Below are positions 2 through 4,266 of a stretch of 4,266 nt of DNA, one piece after another; position 1 is the first letter of the stretch; each line of letters starts with the position of its first letter. The notes under the pieces were generated by a model that saw nothing but the letters and a program-made list of their open reading frames with translations, was not told where the DNA came from and searched no databases. Made by a program: the position numbers and the translations under genes. This DNA is from a virus (taxonomy: Duplodnaviria; Heunggongvirae; Uroviricota; Caudoviricetes). The stretch is from IMG/VR virus record IMGVR_UViG_2547132272_000018. One strand, 5' to 3'.

Positions 2-235
2 ACGCTACGTACTTCTCGGGGCGCTTACGTTTCTAACAGTGACACATCCCTGATCCGTTCGCTGTATCGCAATTTTACTCACCACTACATCAAGGCAAAA
101 CGCAGCATCGGCGTAGCAGCTGGTGAGAGTAAATCTGCAACAGAAATCATCGCTGTTTCTGGGGCGCGCTGCTGGGTGGGATTTGATCCTTCGCGTGGCG
201 TGGATAGTTCTGCCGTGTACGGAGTGCGTGCATGA
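2..235 (+). CDS. 5'-truncated hypothetical phage early protein, C-terminal 78 codons; stop overlaps the gene A start (ATGA)
   Basis: Frame 2 is open from the window edge to TGA 233..235, while the other two + frames hit stops within the first 51 nt. The stop overlaps ATG 232..234 of the next gene, a typical translational-coupling junction. No family recognised. Confidence 0.45.
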
Positions 236-2646
236 GCCATGCTGATATGAACAACTGCAGCGGCTTTAACGAGGCCGCCGCAGCATTCTCATGGAACAGC
301 CCGAAAAAGGCTATTAACCCTTATCTGGACCCGGCGGAAGTTGCGCCGGTTTCTGCGCTTTCAAACCTGATCACTCTGTACGCTGTCGATAACGAGCAGG
401 AACAACTGCGTCGCGAGGCACTGAGTGATCAGGTCTGGGAGCGTTATTTCTTTAATGAATCCCGTGATCCTGTCCACCGCGAAATGGAGCAGGATAAGCT
501 CATTAGCCGGGCAAAGATGGCGCATGAGCAGCAGCGTTTTAATCCAGACATGGTCATTCTGGCTGACGTCAACGCCCAGCCTTCCCATATCAGCAAGCCG
601 CTGATGCAACGTATTGAATATTTAAGCAGCTTGGGCAGGCCAAAGGCTTATTCCCGCTATTTGCGTGAGACGATTAAGCCATGTCTGGAACGACTGGAGC
701 ATGTACGCGACAGCCAGCTATCTGCATCTTTTCGTTTTATGGCAAGCCATGAAGGGCTGGACGGTCTGCTGATCCTGCCTGAAATGAGTCAGGATCAGGT
801 GAAACGCCTGTCTACCCTTGTCGCTGCGCATATGAGCATGTGTCTTGATGCCGCTTGTGGTGATTTGTACGCCTCCGATGATGTTAAGCCAGAAGAAATC
901 CGCAAGACATGGGAAAAGGTGGCTGCAGAAACCCTGCGACTGGATGTCATACCGCCTGCGTTTGAGCAACTCCGCCGGAAAAGAAACCGCCGCAAACCTG
1001 TGCCTTATGAACTCATTCCGGGTTCGCTGGCGCGTATGCTGTGCGCCGACTGGTGGTATCGGAAATTATGGAAGATGCGTTGCGAATGGCGAGAAGAGCA
1101 GTTGCGTGCTGTCTGCCTGGTCAGCAAAAAAGCATCTCCCTATGTCAGCTATGAAGCCGTGATGCATAAACGTGAGCAGCGCCGTAAGTCGCTGGAGTTT
1201 TTCCGTTTTCATGAACTGGTGAACGAAGACGGCGACACGCTGGATATGGAAGATGTGGTAAACGCCAGCAGCAGCAACCCTGCGCATCGCCGCAATGAGA
1301 TGATGGCCTGTGTTAAAGGTCTGGAGCTTATCGCGGAAATGCGCGGTGACTGCGCCGTTTTCTATACCATCACCTGTCCGTCACGTTTCCATTCCACGCT
1401 AAATAACGGCAGGCCCAACCCGACCTGGACAAATGCGACGGTAAGACAAAGCAGCGATTATCTGGTCGGCATGTTTGCTGCATTTCGTAAGGCGATGCAC
1501 AAAGCCGGATTGCGCTGGTATGGCGTGCGGGTGGCTGAGCCGCATCATGACGGTACAGTTCACTGGCACCTGTTGTGTTTCATGCGCAAAAAAGACCGCC
1601 GCGCCATTACTGCATTGTTGCGTAAATTTGCCATCCGTGAAGACCGCGAGGAGCTGGGTAATAACACAGGTCCACGCTTTAAATCTGAGCTGATAAACCC
1701 GCGCAAAGGAACACCGACAAGCTACATCGCGAAATACATCAGTAAGAACATTGACGGGCGTGGTCTGGCTGGCGAGATCAGCAAGGAAACGGGTAAATCC
1801 CTGCGTGATAACGCTGAATACGTTAATGCCTGGGCGTCTCTGCATCGTGTTCAGCAATTCCGCTTCTTTGGCATTCCGGGGCGTCAGGCTTACCGTGAAC
1901 TGCGATTGCTGGCTGGTCAGGCGGCAAGGCAACAGGGCGACAAAAAAGCAGGTGCGCCGGTACTGGATAACCCGCGCCTTGATGCCATCCTGGCTGCTGC
2001 TGATGCTGGTTGTTTTGCCACCTACATCATGAAGCAGGGCGGCGTACTGGTTTCCCGCAAATATCACCTGATCAGAACCGCTTATGAAATCAACGAAGAG
2101 CCGACCGCCTATGGCGATCACGGCATTCGTATTTATGGCATCTGGTCACCCATTGCAGAGGGCAAGATCTGCACTCATGCCGTGAAGTGGAAAATGGTTC
2201 GTAAGGCCGTTGACGTTCAGGAGGCGGCAGCCGACCAGGGCGCTTGCGCCCCTTGGACTCGTGGCAATAACTGTCCCCTTGCTGAAAATTTGAACCAACA
2301 AGGGAAAGACAAATCAGCTGATGGGGATACCAGGACGGACATTACCCGCATGGATGACAAGGAGTTGCACGATTACCTGCACAGTATGAGCAAAAAAGAG
2401 CGCCGGGAACTGGCTGCAAGGTTACGCCTGGTGAAACCGAAACGGCGTAAAGACTACAAACAGCGAATTACAGACCATCAGCGACAGCAGCTCGTCTACG
2501 AACTGAAGTCCAGAGGATTTGATGGCAGCGAGAAAGAGGTCGATTTACTCCTTCGCGGCGGCAGTATTCCGTCAGGAGCAGGCCTGCGTATCTTCTATCG
2601 GAACCAGCGTTTGCAGGAAGATGATAAGTGGCGAAACCTGTATTAA
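232..2646 (+). CDS. A: P2/186-family replication initiation endonuclease gpA (rolling-circle HUH nickase)
   Basis: 804-codon ORF with GGAG (221..224) 7 nt upstream of the ATG. Contains the HUH metal-binding motif [13 protein letters not shown] (H444-W-H446, nt 1561..1569) and the twin-tyrosine motif [13 protein letters not shown] (Y498 and Y502, nt 1723..1737), both nearly identical to motifs I recall from P2 gpA. The N-terminal FSWNSP region also resembles P2 gpA. Confidence 0.93.
2248..2267 (+). other. Candidate origin of replication (gpA nick site) inside the gene A coding sequence
   Basis: GCCCCTTGGACTCGTGGCAA matches 15 of 20 positions of the P2 ori nick region as I recall it (GCGCCTCGGAGTCCTGTCAA). 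It encodes APWTRGNNC, which aligns with APRSPVNNC in P2 gpA. P2-family phages place ori inside gene A. The reference sequence is from memory and unverified. Confidence 0.3.
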
Positions 2647-2715
2647 TTACGCGGGTTAACAATTCGTGCTCTTAATAATACCAGGCATATCAGGCTGATG
2701 AACGTAAAAAAACGT

Positions 2716-2756
2716 TTTACATCAGTAAGATTATTATATACTGTGAATATAAACAG
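2716..2756 (+). promoter_or_regulatory. Putative sigma70 promoter of the SOS module, overlapping the LexA box
   Basis: TTTACA at 2716..2721; candidate -10 hexamers TATACT (2737..2742) or TATAAA (2748..2753, inside the LexA box). Spacing is not ideal for either pairing, so exact elements are uncertain. Confidence 0.4.
2741..2756. promoter_or_regulatory. LexA operator (SOS box)
   Basis: CTGTGAATATAAACAG is a perfect CTGT-N8-ACAG palindrome with an AT-rich spacer, 44 bp upstream of the ATG at 2800 and overlapping the candidate -10. This matches the LexA-repressed tum promoter arrangement of phage 186. Confidence 0.7.
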
Positions 2757-2799
2757 TGGTTATGTATACAGTGTTGCTTGTGGTGTCATAGGAGGAAAG

Positions 2800-2988
2800 A
2801 TGCAGGACTATTTTTTGGAGTCTTTGAAGCTCCAGCGCATTGATTTTTTTCTTAAGCTTGTAGCGGCTAGTGAGTGTAGTGATGAAGAGAAGGGGCTGGC
2901 TCTGCAGTGGGTTTCTGAATTGACTGATGAACTCATGGCAAAAATCAGAAGCCACGAATACAACCGCTCAATGGATGTCATCAGCTGA
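2800..2988 (+). CDS. Small SOS-module protein of 62 aa, possibly the N-terminal antirepressor portion of a Tum-like protein
   Basis: ATG 2800 is the first start downstream of the LexA box and is preceded by AGGAGG (2790..2795). It is the inner start of listed ORF 2698..2988. The TGA 2986..2988 lies 10 nt before the DinI-like start. No family recognised from sequence. Confidence 0.5.
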   Translation: MQDYFLESLKLQRIDFFLKLVAASECSDEEKGLALQWVSELTDELMAKIRSHEYNRSMDVIS

Positions 2989-2998
2989 GGTGACTTTT

Positions 2999-3232
2999 AT
3001 GCGCATTGAAATAATGATCGATAAAGAGCAGAAGATTAGCCAGTCTACCCTGGACGCCCTTGAATCCGAGCTTTACCGCAATCTGCGCCCCCTGTATCCA
3101 AAAACGGTAATTCGTATCCGCAAAGGTAGCTCTAACGGTGTGGAACTGACCGGACTGCAACTGGACGAAGAAAGAAAACAAGTGATGAAAATTTTGCAGA
3201 AGGTGTGGGAAGACGACAGCTGGCTGCATTGA
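2999..3232 (+). CDS. dinI: DinI-family SOS-inducible protein (Tum C-terminal-domain-like)
   Basis: 77 aa starting MRIEIMIDK and ending ILQKVWEDDSWLH, matching E. coli DinI (MRIEVTIAK ... ILQETWESADDWF) in the N-terminal block, the DALxxEL block and the C-terminal acidic-Trp block. SD GAGGTGA (2987..2993) lies 5 nt before the ATG. It is the inner start of listed ORF 2927..3232. Confidence 0.85.
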   Translation: MRIEIMIDKEQKISQSTLDALESELYRNLRPLYPKTVIRIRKGSSNGVELTGLQLDEERKQVMKILQKVWEDDSWLH

Positions 3233-3286
3233 TTTTGTCAATAGACGCTTGTTTTTACTAATCAAAAAGGGTTACATATGAGTGAG

Positions 3287-3319
3287 AGGCGATGTCAATC
3301 AGATATCGCCTTGTTTTTT
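3287..3319 (+). terminator. Rho-independent terminator ending the SOS module
   Basis: Stem 3287..3296 pairs with 3302..3311 (AGGCGATGTC / GACATCGCCT-type, one G-U pair), 5-nt loop, then TGTTTTTT at 3312..3319. Confidence 0.6.
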
Positions 3320-3345
3320 GTCAAGAAAAGAATAATAGGCTAAAA

Positions 3346-4023
3346 ATGAAAATTAATAATGTAGCGTTACCAATATCTCTTGCTGTAATCCTAACTGGTT
3401 GCGTGCCACATGCTTCTAACCGAAATATCACTGCTATTGAAGTGGTGAAGCCAGCTATTGGGCAAAGTGCTACCGCCTACATGGGCGATCCCATTATCAC
3501 ATCTGCTACTGGATTTAAAACGGACGTACTAGAACTTGGTGCGGCTAATGGTGCATTGTCTTCTATCGCTGCTGGTACATATTGCAGTGAGGGGAATGGA
3601 ATTTACCGCAATTATCATAACCCTCAAGCTGTTGCGTTAAAAAATCTCTATGGGCAAATCGGTAACTATGTTGATTATGTTAGTTACGATGCTGCAAAAA
3701 ATGAGATATCACCGCCAAATGGCACTTCTTATACTGCATCAGAAATTTCTATCAAACGTGTTCCTGATGGGCTGTGTCGAGTGAGTAATTCATTGGTTAA
3801 GACTATCGAATACAATGGAAATGCAGGCGGTGTAATGAAGTTCACCTATCGTGAATTTGCAAACGATATGGCTCGTGCAGCATTTACAACAGATTTTTCT
3901 GTAGATTCTAAGGGAAGTGATGTTATCGCTTACAAAGGTGCCAAGTTCAAAGTGAACAAGGCTGATAACTCGTCTATTTCTTATACAATTATTTCTGGCT
4001 TTGACAAGGCTGTCACGTTCTAG
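3346..4023 (+). CDS. Putative lipoprotein of unknown function, 225 aa precursor; prophage cargo
   Basis: Begins MKINNVALPISLAVILTGC: a basic n-region, hydrophobic core and LTGC lipobox, with Val rather than Asp at +2 (suggesting outer-membrane sorting). Weak SD AGG at 3337..3339. Visibly more AT-rich than gene A. Two further Cys residues, Tyr/Asn/Gly-rich, C-terminal Phe. The listed ORF starts at ATG 3292, but that start lies inside the upstream terminator stem and would bury the signal peptide. Confidence 0.7.
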   Translation: MKINNVALPISLAVILTGCVPHASNRNITAIEVVKPAIGQSATAYMGDPIITSATGFKTDVLELGAANGALSSIAAGTYCSEGNGIYRNYHNPQAVALKNLYGQIGNYVDYVSYDAAKNEISPPNGTSYTASEISIKRVPDGLCRVSNSLVKTIEYNGNAGGVMKFTYREFANDMARAAFTTDFSVDSKGSDVIAYKGAKFKVNKADNSSISYTIISGFDKAVTF

Positions 4024-4196: not shown

Positions 4197-4215
4197 GGCG
4201 TGGCGGGGATACGAG
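4197..4215. other. Candidate cos site (19-nt cohesive-end sequence of a P2/186-family phage)
   Basis: GGCGTGGCGGGGATACGAG: the first 13 nt match the 186 cohesive end as I recall it (GGCGTGGCGGGGAAAGCAT) and resemble the P2 one (GGCGAGGCGGGGAAAGCAC). The position downstream of gene A and its accessory genes is where cos lies in P2-family genomes. Reference sequences are from memory. Confidence 0.5.
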
Positions 4216-4266
4216 CGCGCGTATTTGGTCGTTACTTAGGGAAGGTGCGAATAAGCAGGTCATTTC

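Follow-up and report, generated by a model that had tools for sequence, protein, structure and literature searches.

Adjacent tum and dinI-like genes in what is very probably the SOS operon of a Fels-2-type prophage

We have examined the gene structure, homology, conservation and selection of a short regulatory module within a 4,266-nt stretch of DNA, hereafter the window. A long replication gene is followed there, on the same strand, by a promoter with an overlapping LexA operator, two small genes, a terminator-like hairpin and a cargo gene, and a cos site lies beyond them (Table 1). The module stands directly 3' of gene A and near the right end (cos), an order equally found in 186, PSP3, Fels-2 and the prophage of E. 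coli HS. The Salmonella phage Fels-2 is ~97% identical to the window (97% over 2600..3300), many Klebsiella, E. coli and Salmonella P2-like phages show 98% identity over 2600..3300, and the Fels-2 record annotates the same 62-aa and 77-aa ORFs 3' of gene A. In our reading, to which we assign a probability of about 0.93, the SOS operon of a prophage of Fels-2 type (Felsduovirus, P2/186 family) occupies the region 2716..3232, with a tum antirepressor gene and a separate dinI-like gene in their ordinary two-gene state. The module is the already known and characterised LexA-controlled Tum/DinI switch of Fels-2/186-type prophages, and the initial annotation, made from the letters of the window, was right in recognising a LexA-controlled Tum-like module, here in a 186-like prophage and downstream of replication gene A.

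Table 1. Features of the window, with position, strand and the grounds for each assignment
Feature	Position	Strand	Grounds
Replication endonuclease gene A, P2 gpA-like, 804 aa	232..2646	+	ORF list; 'P2 gpA-like protein' or 'replication endonuclease' in Fels-2 and E. coli HS
Promoter, equivalent of 186 p95	2706..2744	+	Layout match to annotated p95; conservation
Primary LexA operator (putative), CTGTGAATATAAACAG	2741..2756		Exact CTGT-N8-ACAG; overlaps -10 hexamer
Second, imperfect LexA-like box, GTGGTTATGTATACAG	2756..2771		One base common to primary box; 2 mismatches in left half
tum (tumA), 62 aa, ATG start	2800..2988	+	Shine-Dalgarno AGGAGG 2790..2795
dinI-like gene (tumB equivalent), 77 aa	2999..3232	+	Own Shine-Dalgarno GAGGTGA 2987..2993, overlapping tum stop codon
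Intrinsic terminator-like hairpin, 11-pair stem then T-run	3286..3320	+	Terminator scan; position equals t95a of 186
Cargo ORF, 225 aa, lipoprotein-type signal sequence (LTGC)	3346..4023	+	PHROG phrog_1353, function unknown, E = 3e-105
cos site, GGCGTGGCGGGGATACGAG	4197..4215		Aligns with annotated 19-nt cohesive end of 186 (GGCGTGGCGGGGAAAGCAT)

Downstream of the two small genes, the hairpin has its counterpart in t95a, which is annotated in 186 as a partial terminator 3' of tum. The cargo ORF that follows corresponds in its 225-aa form to the RefSeq annotation in E. coli HS and gave no match in Pfam, NCBIfam or PADLOC. It occupies the slot of 186 orf97 but is unrelated to Orf97; an origin as an orf97 homologue was considered for this ORF (243 or 225 aa) and discarded, as no similarity was found and the equal length of 243 aa of orf97 and of the longest reading is a coincidence. 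The 38 nt before cos align with the right end of 186, and the cos site marks the end of the virion chromosome.

In the promoter, a conserved A-tract (2706..2712) precedes the -35 hexamer TTTACA (2716..2721), which 17 nt separate from the -10 hexamer TACTGT (2739..2744). Its layout equals that of p95 as annotated in 186, with a -35 TTCACA and a -10 TACTGT inside the LexA site, and TTTACA and TACTGT are kept across the relatives with a variable spacer between them. A generic promoter scan did not pick up the promoter at 2706..2744, because TACTGT fits TATAAT at only 3 of 6 positions. The perfect LexA box reported earlier in front of the 62-aa ORF is indeed present, and it is the sole exact CTGT-N8-ACAG match in the window, where ~0.07 would be expected per 4.3 kb (4266/4^8). 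It forms the core of the 20-mer TACTGTGAATATAAACAGTG (2739..2758). Of 37 loci scanned, 27 have an exact box in this position, 186 and PSP3 among them, and TACTGT and ACAGT were invariant in a 10-sequence alignment with these two phages. We infer from the operator sequence that LexA would bind at 2741..2756. The consensus of the second box, GTGGATATATATACAG, is kept in most Fels-2-type relatives, with 1 mismatch only in L005, L019 and L020, and among the loci compared the box is absent in 186, PSP3 and the Pantoea/Erwinia branch. To judge from its letters, this second box may likewise be a LexA site.

The antirepressor gene is given in the ORF list only in a 96-aa version starting at ATG 2698, and many gene callers extend tum in the same manner to 96 aa, from an ATG located upstream of tum's own promoter. 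Read from its own start, the gene ends at a TGA stop (2986..2988), its product matches the PHROG family phrog_698 (E = 5.9e-38), and its pN/pS in its own frame is 0.15 across 31 relatives. Searches of Pfam, NCBIfam and PADLOC with the small ORF returned nothing significant, and no related solved structure was found for it. An AlphaFold model of the 62-aa protein is a two-helix hairpin (pLDDT 88), which had no match in BFVD at E <= 0.001, helical hairpins not being discriminating.

The function of the gene could be taken from published work on the prophage DuoHS of E. coli HS, in which ECHS_RS04495, whose product is identical to that of the window at 62 of 62 residues, was deleted as 'tum' (PMC12055606; 2025, Nat Microbiol). 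The delta-tum primers of that study fit window positions 2780..2802 and 2986..3008 exactly; the deletion joins the ATG directly to the TGA and does not touch the DinI gene. The delta-tum strain showed no mitomycin C induction, and induction by mitomycin C was found to need both tum and cleavable LexA (PMC12055606), the Tum protein being identical to the window's. A general SOS block would also produce the lexA(Ind-) phenotype that was published. Among the RefSeq and phage entries sampled, 'hypothetical protein' is the label given to the 62-aa gene, apart from a few phage entries that call it 'levan regulatory domain protein'; the published experiments justify the name tum, for an antirepressor on which SOS induction depends.

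The second ORF matches Pfam DinI (PF06183) over profile positions 1-63 of 63 (E = 4.6e-23; 81.8 bits vs a cut-off of 24.2) and is collinear with E. coli DinI (PDB 1GHH, E = 1.4e-6), its start MRIEI aligning with Met1 of the E. coli protein (MRIEV). It is 77% identical to PSP3 TumB and 43% identical to residues 71-145 of 186 Tum, and the earlier description of 186 Tum as a protein of about 146 aa with a DinI-like C-terminal half held good, its length being 146 aa. Against NCBIfam PRK10597, the equivalog of chromosomal E. coli DinI, the ORF scored 44.1 bits, below the cut-off of 111. It belongs with the DinI-like paralogues of phages (TumB type, phrog_189) and is not host dinI. By analogy with DinI, its product would bind RecA filaments and modulate the SOS response. 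The pN/pS of the gene is 0.12 in 19 relatives. We compared 36 loci, namely 33 from other genomes together with the window, Fels-2 and PSP3, with the starts of the DinI gene set by tblastn anchoring; tum is intact while the DinI gene is missing in 13 of them and truncated in 4. Loss or truncation in 17 of 36 loci suggests that the DinI-like gene is dispensable in this phage type.

The module was also compared with known systems. DuoHS of E. coli HS (ECHS_RS04495 and ECHS_RS04500; PMC12055606), besides its identical Tum, encodes a DinI-like protein identical to that of the window at 76 of 77 residues, and has the same 10-nt spacer, Shine-Dalgarno sequences, promoter, LexA box and place after gene A; it differs by a few nucleotide changes in the module and by another cargo region after cos, the alignment ending at window position 4221. 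In Fels-2 and PSP3, tum is described as split into two genes (PMC3121763), the Fels-2 pair being STM2728 and STM2726.1 (Bunny, Liu and Roth 2002, as cited in PMC3121763). The Fels-2 genes have the same sizes, spacer and frame offset as those of the window, whereas STM2728 differs from the window ORF at two residues (97% identity) and in Fels-2 the lipoprotein-like gene is separated from the portal gene by an extra 1.7-kb ORF. PSP3, in whose annotation the equivalent pair is named tumA and tumB, likewise has a LexA box, a small antirepressor gene of ~60 aa and a separate 77-aa DinI-like gene after gene A, but its tumA belongs to another sequence family (phrog_1993) without BLASTP similarity to the window tum, and tumA and tumB stand in the same frame with a TAG plus 3 nt between them. 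Phage 186 has in common with the window the layout of promoter and LexA operator, the place after gene A and a terminator 3' of the module, and its Tum, a LexA-controlled antirepressor of CI (PMC7708051, PMC3121763), has a DinI-like C-terminal half and an N-terminal part of ~44 residues that is probably a remote homologue of the small ORF. In 186 both halves are contained in one ORF, whereas the window has a TGA, a 10-nt gap and a change of frame; an internal Shine-Dalgarno and GTG in 186 tum still yield a separate 76-aa DinI-like product, and their retention suggests that the fused gene of 186 may be the derived form. The dinI-gfoA/gftA operons of the Gifsy phages (Lemire et al. 2011) are also under LexA control and combine a homologue of DinI and a small antirepressor that induction requires, but they start with dinI, belong to lambdoid phages and have antirepressors and repressors that bear no relation to those considered here (per PMC3121763).

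The relation of the small ORF to 186 Tum deserves closer attention, since the small ORF could be an antirepressor by position only, that is, an unrelated protein recruited to the same LexA-controlled slot by analogy and not by homology. Such a recruitment would agree with the blank BLASTP result, which gave no alignment with either 186 Tum or PSP3 TumA, with an insignificant hhalign comparison to PSP3 TumA, with the generic helical hairpin and its lack of significant structural neighbours, and with the lack of a Pfam or NCBIfam family. We nevertheless consider it unlikely. Residues 6-44 of 186 Tum match phrog_698, the profile of the window ORF itself, collinearly and with E = 5.9e-6; phrog_8554 is matched by both the window ORF and 186 Tum (1.1e-8 and 3.4e-12), and the window ORF reaches E = 0.002 against phrog_1993, the PSP3/186 family. 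With hhalign, residues 1-43 of the window protein align with residues 1-43 of 186 Tum at E = 5e-4 and a probability of only 30%, and a Cys and an A-L motif are common to both at equivalent positions. The cognate repressors are homologous too: the CI of the E. coli HS prophage (ECHS_RS04455) has 33% identity to the 186 repressor, as seen in that near-identical prophage only, the cI gene lying outside the window. At this identity, repressor and antirepressor have diverged together, the antirepressor halves of the window and 186 being ~21% identical. It is thus probable that the small ORF and the first ~44 residues of 186 Tum are remote homologues at the profile level. Similarity to the Tum N-terminus, on which the identification had been made to depend, is accordingly lacking at the BLASTP level and present at the level of PHROG profiles and hhalign.

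The two-gene organisation was weighed against a single gene broken in two. The ORFs lie, as first described, in different frames (2800 = 1 mod 3; 2999 = 2 mod 3), with 10 nt from the TGA stop to the ATG. Upstream, the DinI frame stays open as far as ATG 2927, ~65 nt into tum (ORF 2927..3232), and the statement that both frames are open across 2927..2988 and include an A5 run at 2940..2944 (GCAAAAATC) stands. Together with the single 146-aa Tum of 186 and its DinI-like C-terminal half, these features had led to the proposal that a sequencing error or a recent frameshift in 2927..2988, for instance in the A5 run, had split a 186-like Tum of ~140-146 aa, which an indel would restore. The proposal fails on comparison. 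In every relative examined tum is a separate ORF with its own stop codon, placed at codon 62 in 31 relatives, and the same stop, 10-nt spacer and ATG recur in Fels-2, in E. coli HS and in dozens of phages that were sequenced independently. Of 5426 complete E. coli genomes, 1083 (~20%) contain the module over 80% or more of the query, and two genes are annotated in 11 of 12 sampled E. coli rows, the remaining row covering only half of the query. Among the best 120 of 483 protein hits no homologue exceeded 109 aa, and a profile search of 1.84 billion cluster representatives with the small-ORF family gave no Tum-DinI fusion among 86 representatives. A 1205-aa hit in that search was a repeat protein matched spuriously; the other longer hits were N-terminal over-extensions or contig artefacts. 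The match of the DinI ORF start with Met1 of E. coli DinI, its own Shine-Dalgarno and the tum-null phenotype obtained by deletion of the small ORF alone (PMC12055606) argue in the same direction, and we regard a broken gene as extremely improbable.

The frame relation itself varies among relatives. The DinI gene follows tum in 22 of the 36 loci, at a gap of 3 or 8-12 nt, and the two frames are offset by 0 in 7 loci, by 1 in 7 and by 2 in 9. Conservation is also lacking for the A5 run, of which the variants are GCGAAAATC, GCGAAGATT and GCGCGTCTG, and the open overlap with its A5 run is peculiar to a few close relatives. Consistently separate ORFs with the same frame arrangement in related prophages had been named at the outset as grounds against the split-gene reading; every relative examined has tum as a separate ORF, and not even the frame arrangement is constant. 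Equally negligible is a programmed +1 ribosomal frameshift within the 62-nt overlap, for which a slip at GCA-AAA-A would in the window enter the open DinI frame and add a fused, 186-Tum-sized protein beside the two separate ones, much as 186 makes full-length fused Tum and nested shorter DinI-like products: it is contradicted by the three offsets and the variable A-run, by stops of the +1 (DinI) frame within the last ~60 nt of tum in 26 of 31 relatives, by a pN/pS of 0.87 in the DinI frame vs 0.20 in the tum frame over the last 20 codons of tum, hence no coding constraint there in the DinI frame, and by the junction hairpin. This hairpin (2977..2994), which covers the tum stop and the DinI Shine-Dalgarno, was also considered as a translational-coupling structure and rejected, its stability being like that of shuffled sequence (z = -1.16). 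Tum and the DinI-like ORF are two adjacent genes, and both an indel artefact and a programmed frameshift are rejected. Of the options first offered, the alternative of two coupled genes, with the DinI ORF served by its own Shine-Dalgarno, was the correct reading. In annotation, a stop codon and a shift of frame between the antirepressor portion and the DinI-like one should not be taken as the mark of a pseudogene or of a frameshift.

For the two-gene operon we propose the following course of events. In the lysogen, LexA would sit on the operator overlapping the -10 of the sigma-70 promoter (2716..2744) and keep the operon silent; upon DNA damage, activated RecA would promote self-cleavage of LexA and the promoter would fire, giving a single transcript from which two proteins would be translated separately. 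Tum, the predicted two-helix protein needed for prophage induction, would by analogy with 186 Tum bind the prophage CI repressor and block its DNA binding, thus releasing the lytic promoter. Direct binding of Tum to CI is shown for 186 only (Shearwin et al. 1998, as cited in PMC3121763 and PMC7708051), and we infer the same interaction, by analogy, for the Fels-2 phage type. The DinI-like protein, translated from its own Shine-Dalgarno and ATG 10 nt past the tum stop, would be expected on RecA filaments, modulating the SOS signal, and the switch itself would not need it. The hairpin terminator would end or attenuate the transcript.

The second LexA-like box might add a further level of control. 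Colicin promoters carry overlapping double SOS boxes, and the layout of the second box here is much like theirs. A double LexA box and a co-transcribed DinI-like protein could form a timing device for SOS induction, a tentative idea that we hold to be rather doubtful. Cooperative LexA binding could in such a device delay tum expression until SOS is deep and sustained, and the DinI-like protein could then adjust RecA activity. Against it stands the absence or truncation of the DinI gene in almost half of the loci compared (17/36). If the idea were true, the split architecture would be more than a fused gene in two pieces: it would provide a threshold for induction that can be tuned.

The LexA-controlled module of the window is already known and has been experimentally tested in a prophage encoding an identical protein. 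The study in which tum was deleted from the E. coli HS prophage DuoHS (PMC12055606) gives the delta-tum junction primers in its supplement; NHR24 maps to window positions 2780..2802, and the two halves of NHR28 map to 2788..2802 and 2986..3008 with zero mismatches. Given this exact mapping, the gene deleted in E. coli HS is exactly the small ORF, hereafter tum. The published deletion joins the ATG at 2800 to the TGA at 2986 and leaves the DinI gene unaffected. In E. coli HS, tum is ECHS_RS04495, a 189-nt gene annotated as 'hypothetical protein' and followed after 10 nt by ECHS_RS04500, a 'DinI-like family protein'; between this strain and the window, Tum is identical at 62/62 residues and the DinI-like protein at 76/77. 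The same two ORFs are recorded in Salmonella phage Fels-2 as STM2728 (62 aa) and STM2726.1 ('DinI family protein', similar to PSP3 TumB), and the PSP3 record describes tumA as 'similar to 5' end 186 tum; UV induction of prophage' and tumB as 'similar to dinI and 3' end of 186 tum'. Of 5426 complete E. coli genomes, 1083 have the module at a coverage of at least 80%, and two genes are annotated in 11 of 12 sampled E. coli rows, the remaining row covering just half of the query. The module is very common, and the sole useful outcome is an improved annotation of the 62-aa gene.

All the sequence features described in the initial annotation are present. The LexA box reported as perfect (box 1) is the only exact match to CTGT-N8-ACAG in the window, and the 62-aa ORF begins with an ATG preceded by AGGAGG. 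The ORF assigned to the DinI family gave a full-length match to Pfam DinI (E = 4.6e-23, 81.8 bits, cut-off 24.2) and aligns collinearly with E. coli DinI (PDB 1GHH) from Met1 onward. The two ORFs do lie in different frames, with 10 nt from the TGA stop to the ATG, the DinI frame stays open upstream as far as 2927, and GCAAAAATC places the A5 run at 2940..2944. The size and DinI-like C-terminal half given for phage 186 Tum were likewise borne out, the protein having 146 aa and sharing 43% identity with the window DinI ORF over residues 71-145.

Features of the window and their coordinates
Feature	Position	Remarks
Gene A, rolling-circle replication endonuclease	232..2646	ORF list
Short regulatory region		after gene A, before the 62-aa ORF
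-35 hexamer TTTACA	2716..2721	
-10 hexamer TACTGT	2739..2744	
LexA box 1, CTGTGAATATAAACAG	2741..2756	
Second LexA-like box, GTGGTTATGTATACAG	2756..2771	imperfect
AGGAGG	2790..2795	
Small ORF (tum)	2800..2988	62 aa
DinI-family ORF	2999..3232	77 aa
Hairpin terminator	3286..3312	followed by T-run; terminator scan
Lipoprotein-like ORF	3346..4023	225 aa; lipoprotein-type signal MKINNVALPISLAVILTGC
cos site, GGCGTGGCGGGGATACGAG	4197..4215	aligned with annotated cohesive end of phage 186

The mechanical ORF list and many database entries start the small gene farther upstream, with an ATG at 2698, and give it 96 aa. This ATG precedes the -35 hexamer of tum's own promoter, and therefore the 62-aa form, which is also the form deleted in the published experiment, is the real product. 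The promoter has the same layout as p95, the SOS promoter of 186, annotated with a -35, a 17-nt spacer and a -10 TACTGT that constitutes the left end of the LexA site. Relatives have kept the -35, the A-tract preceding it, TATACTGT and ACAGT, and vary in the promoter spacer and most of the leader. The second LexA-like box, missing from the initial annotation, overlaps box 1 by one base. Most Fels-2-type relatives have kept it (consensus GTGGATATATATACAG), with a single mismatch to CTGT-N8-ACAG in three loci, and among the loci scanned 186, PSP3 and the Pantoea/Erwinia branch lack it. It may be an auxiliary LexA site covering the transcript start.

The small ORF, 186 Tum and PSP3 TumA are short, fast-evolving sequences; BLASTP found nothing between the small ORF and either of the other two, nor did it link PSP3 TumA to 186 Tum. 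Profile searches against PHROG families do connect the small ORF with the Tum N-terminus. The window ORF matched phrog_698 (5.9e-38), phrog_8554 (1.1e-8) and phrog_1993 (0.002); residues 1-70 of 186 Tum matched the same three at 5.9e-6 (residues 6-44 on profile positions 6-44), 3.4e-12 and 1.5e-23, and PSP3 TumA gave no hit to phrog_698, 0.15 for phrog_8554 and 2.7e-32 for phrog_1993. Comparing a 21-sequence alignment of the window family with 186 Tum, hhalign placed positions 1-43 onto 1-43 (E 5e-4) with a probability of only 30%. In a simple alignment, the small ORF and 186 Tum share a cysteine (C26) and an A-L pair at matching positions, and AlphaFold models the small ORF as a hairpin of two helices, residues 2-23 and 28-61 (mean pLDDT 88), whose turn holds the conserved cysteine. 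CI of the E. coli HS prophage shares 33% identity with 186 CI along its entire length. The antirepressor domain is likely to be homologous to the Tum N-terminus and to have diverged in step with its repressor.

Scanning one genome per species yielded 33 loci with a relative of the small ORF (71-98% identity) in Escherichia, Citrobacter, Enterobacter, Klebsiella, Raoultella, Serratia, Pantoea, Erwinia, Tatumella and others; together with the window, Fels-2 and PSP3 they made a set of 36, in which DinI starts were anchored by tblastn. Tum has 62 aa in nearly all of them. Downstream DinI genes occur in 22 of the 36, at a distance of 3, 8, 9, 10, 11 or 12 nt from tum, and most of these spacers carry a G-rich Shine-Dalgarno sequence. 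Relative to tum, the DinI gene has a frame offset of 0 (7 loci), 1 (7 loci) or 2 (9 loci), which adds up to 23 rather than 22 as the tally also counts the window's own row. The DinI gene is missing downstream in 13 loci (L008, L010, L019, L022, L027-L034 and L036) and truncated to 8, 26, 28 or 60 aa in four (L007, L018, L021 and L035), with tum intact in all of these; the DinI-like partner appears dispensable and is often lost.

Among 31 intact tum sequences, variable sites at codon positions 1/2/3 numbered 28/18/57 and pN/pS was 0.15. The DinI ORF gave a pN/pS of 0.12 over 19 relatives. Over the last 20 codons of tum, pN/pS was 0.20 in its own frame vs 0.87 in the window's DinI frame. Homologues longer than 109 aa were lacking among the best 120 of 483, and those above 62 aa are consistent with upstream over-extension, the 96-aa form being one example. 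Among 1.84 billion cluster representatives, a profile search picked out 86 relatives of 22-133 aa, bar one spurious 1205-aa repeat protein, and none of the 86 carries a C-terminal DinI domain.

The different frames, the open overlap and the A5 run had raised the possibility of a Tum gene split by an indel. Offsets of 0, 1 and 2 all occur, the DinI frame is interrupted by a stop over tum's last 20 codons in 26 of the 31 relatives, and the A-run is not conserved among them. On the loci, substitution patterns, homologue searches and E. coli genomes taken together, a programmed frameshift, a recent pseudogenising indel and a sequencing error are all rejected. The LexA-controlled Tum/DinI module was rightly recognised, but its split is no anomaly, the two-gene state being normal and published, and the open overlap and A5 run are incidental traits of a few close relatives. 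A small GTCATC/GGTGAC hairpin (2977..2994), spanning the tum stop and the DinI Shine-Dalgarno, had suggested translational coupling, but it does not exceed shuffled sequence in stability (z = -1.16), and the spacer is not conserved in relatives.

As for fused Tum, Lemire et al. 2011 (PMC3121763) noted that the 186 protein resembles an antirepressor fused to DinI. Their paper refers to Bunny, Liu and Roth 2002 and to G. E. Christie (personal communication). The 186 record holds nested in-frame tum products, including a 76-aa 'truncated Tum' from a GTG preceded, inside the fused gene, by the strong Shine-Dalgarno AAGGAGGG (186 locus L002, 5270..5300). The DinI-like half thus has an annotated start of its own in 186 too. 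This GTG falls exactly where the window's separate DinI-like gene starts, and the 76-aa product aligns with the DinI ORF start. In PSP3, tumA and tumB share one frame with TAG plus 3 nt between them, whereas in the window the frames differ and the gap is 10 nt. The fused 186 gene, with its nested start, resembles a tumA-tumB pair after loss of the stop codon.

The window represents the right end of a prophage of the P2/186 family. Its region 2600..3300 is 96.6-98.1% identical to about 30 P2-like phages of Klebsiella, Escherichia and Salmonella, including Fels-2 (genus Felsduovirus, 97.1%). The 225-aa ORF matched phrog_1353 (function unknown) in the PHROG search and nothing in Pfam, NCBIfam or PADLOC; it occupies the same slot as orf97 of 186, whose expression blocks 186 infection, although the sequences are unrelated. 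The 38 nt preceding cos also align with the 186 ends. Similarity of E. coli HS to the window ends at about 4221, and a large extra ORF precedes the portal gene both in E. coli HS (ECHS_RS04510, 463 aa, between cos and the portal gene) and in Fels-2 (STM2723.1), so a variable cargo site seems to begin just past cos.
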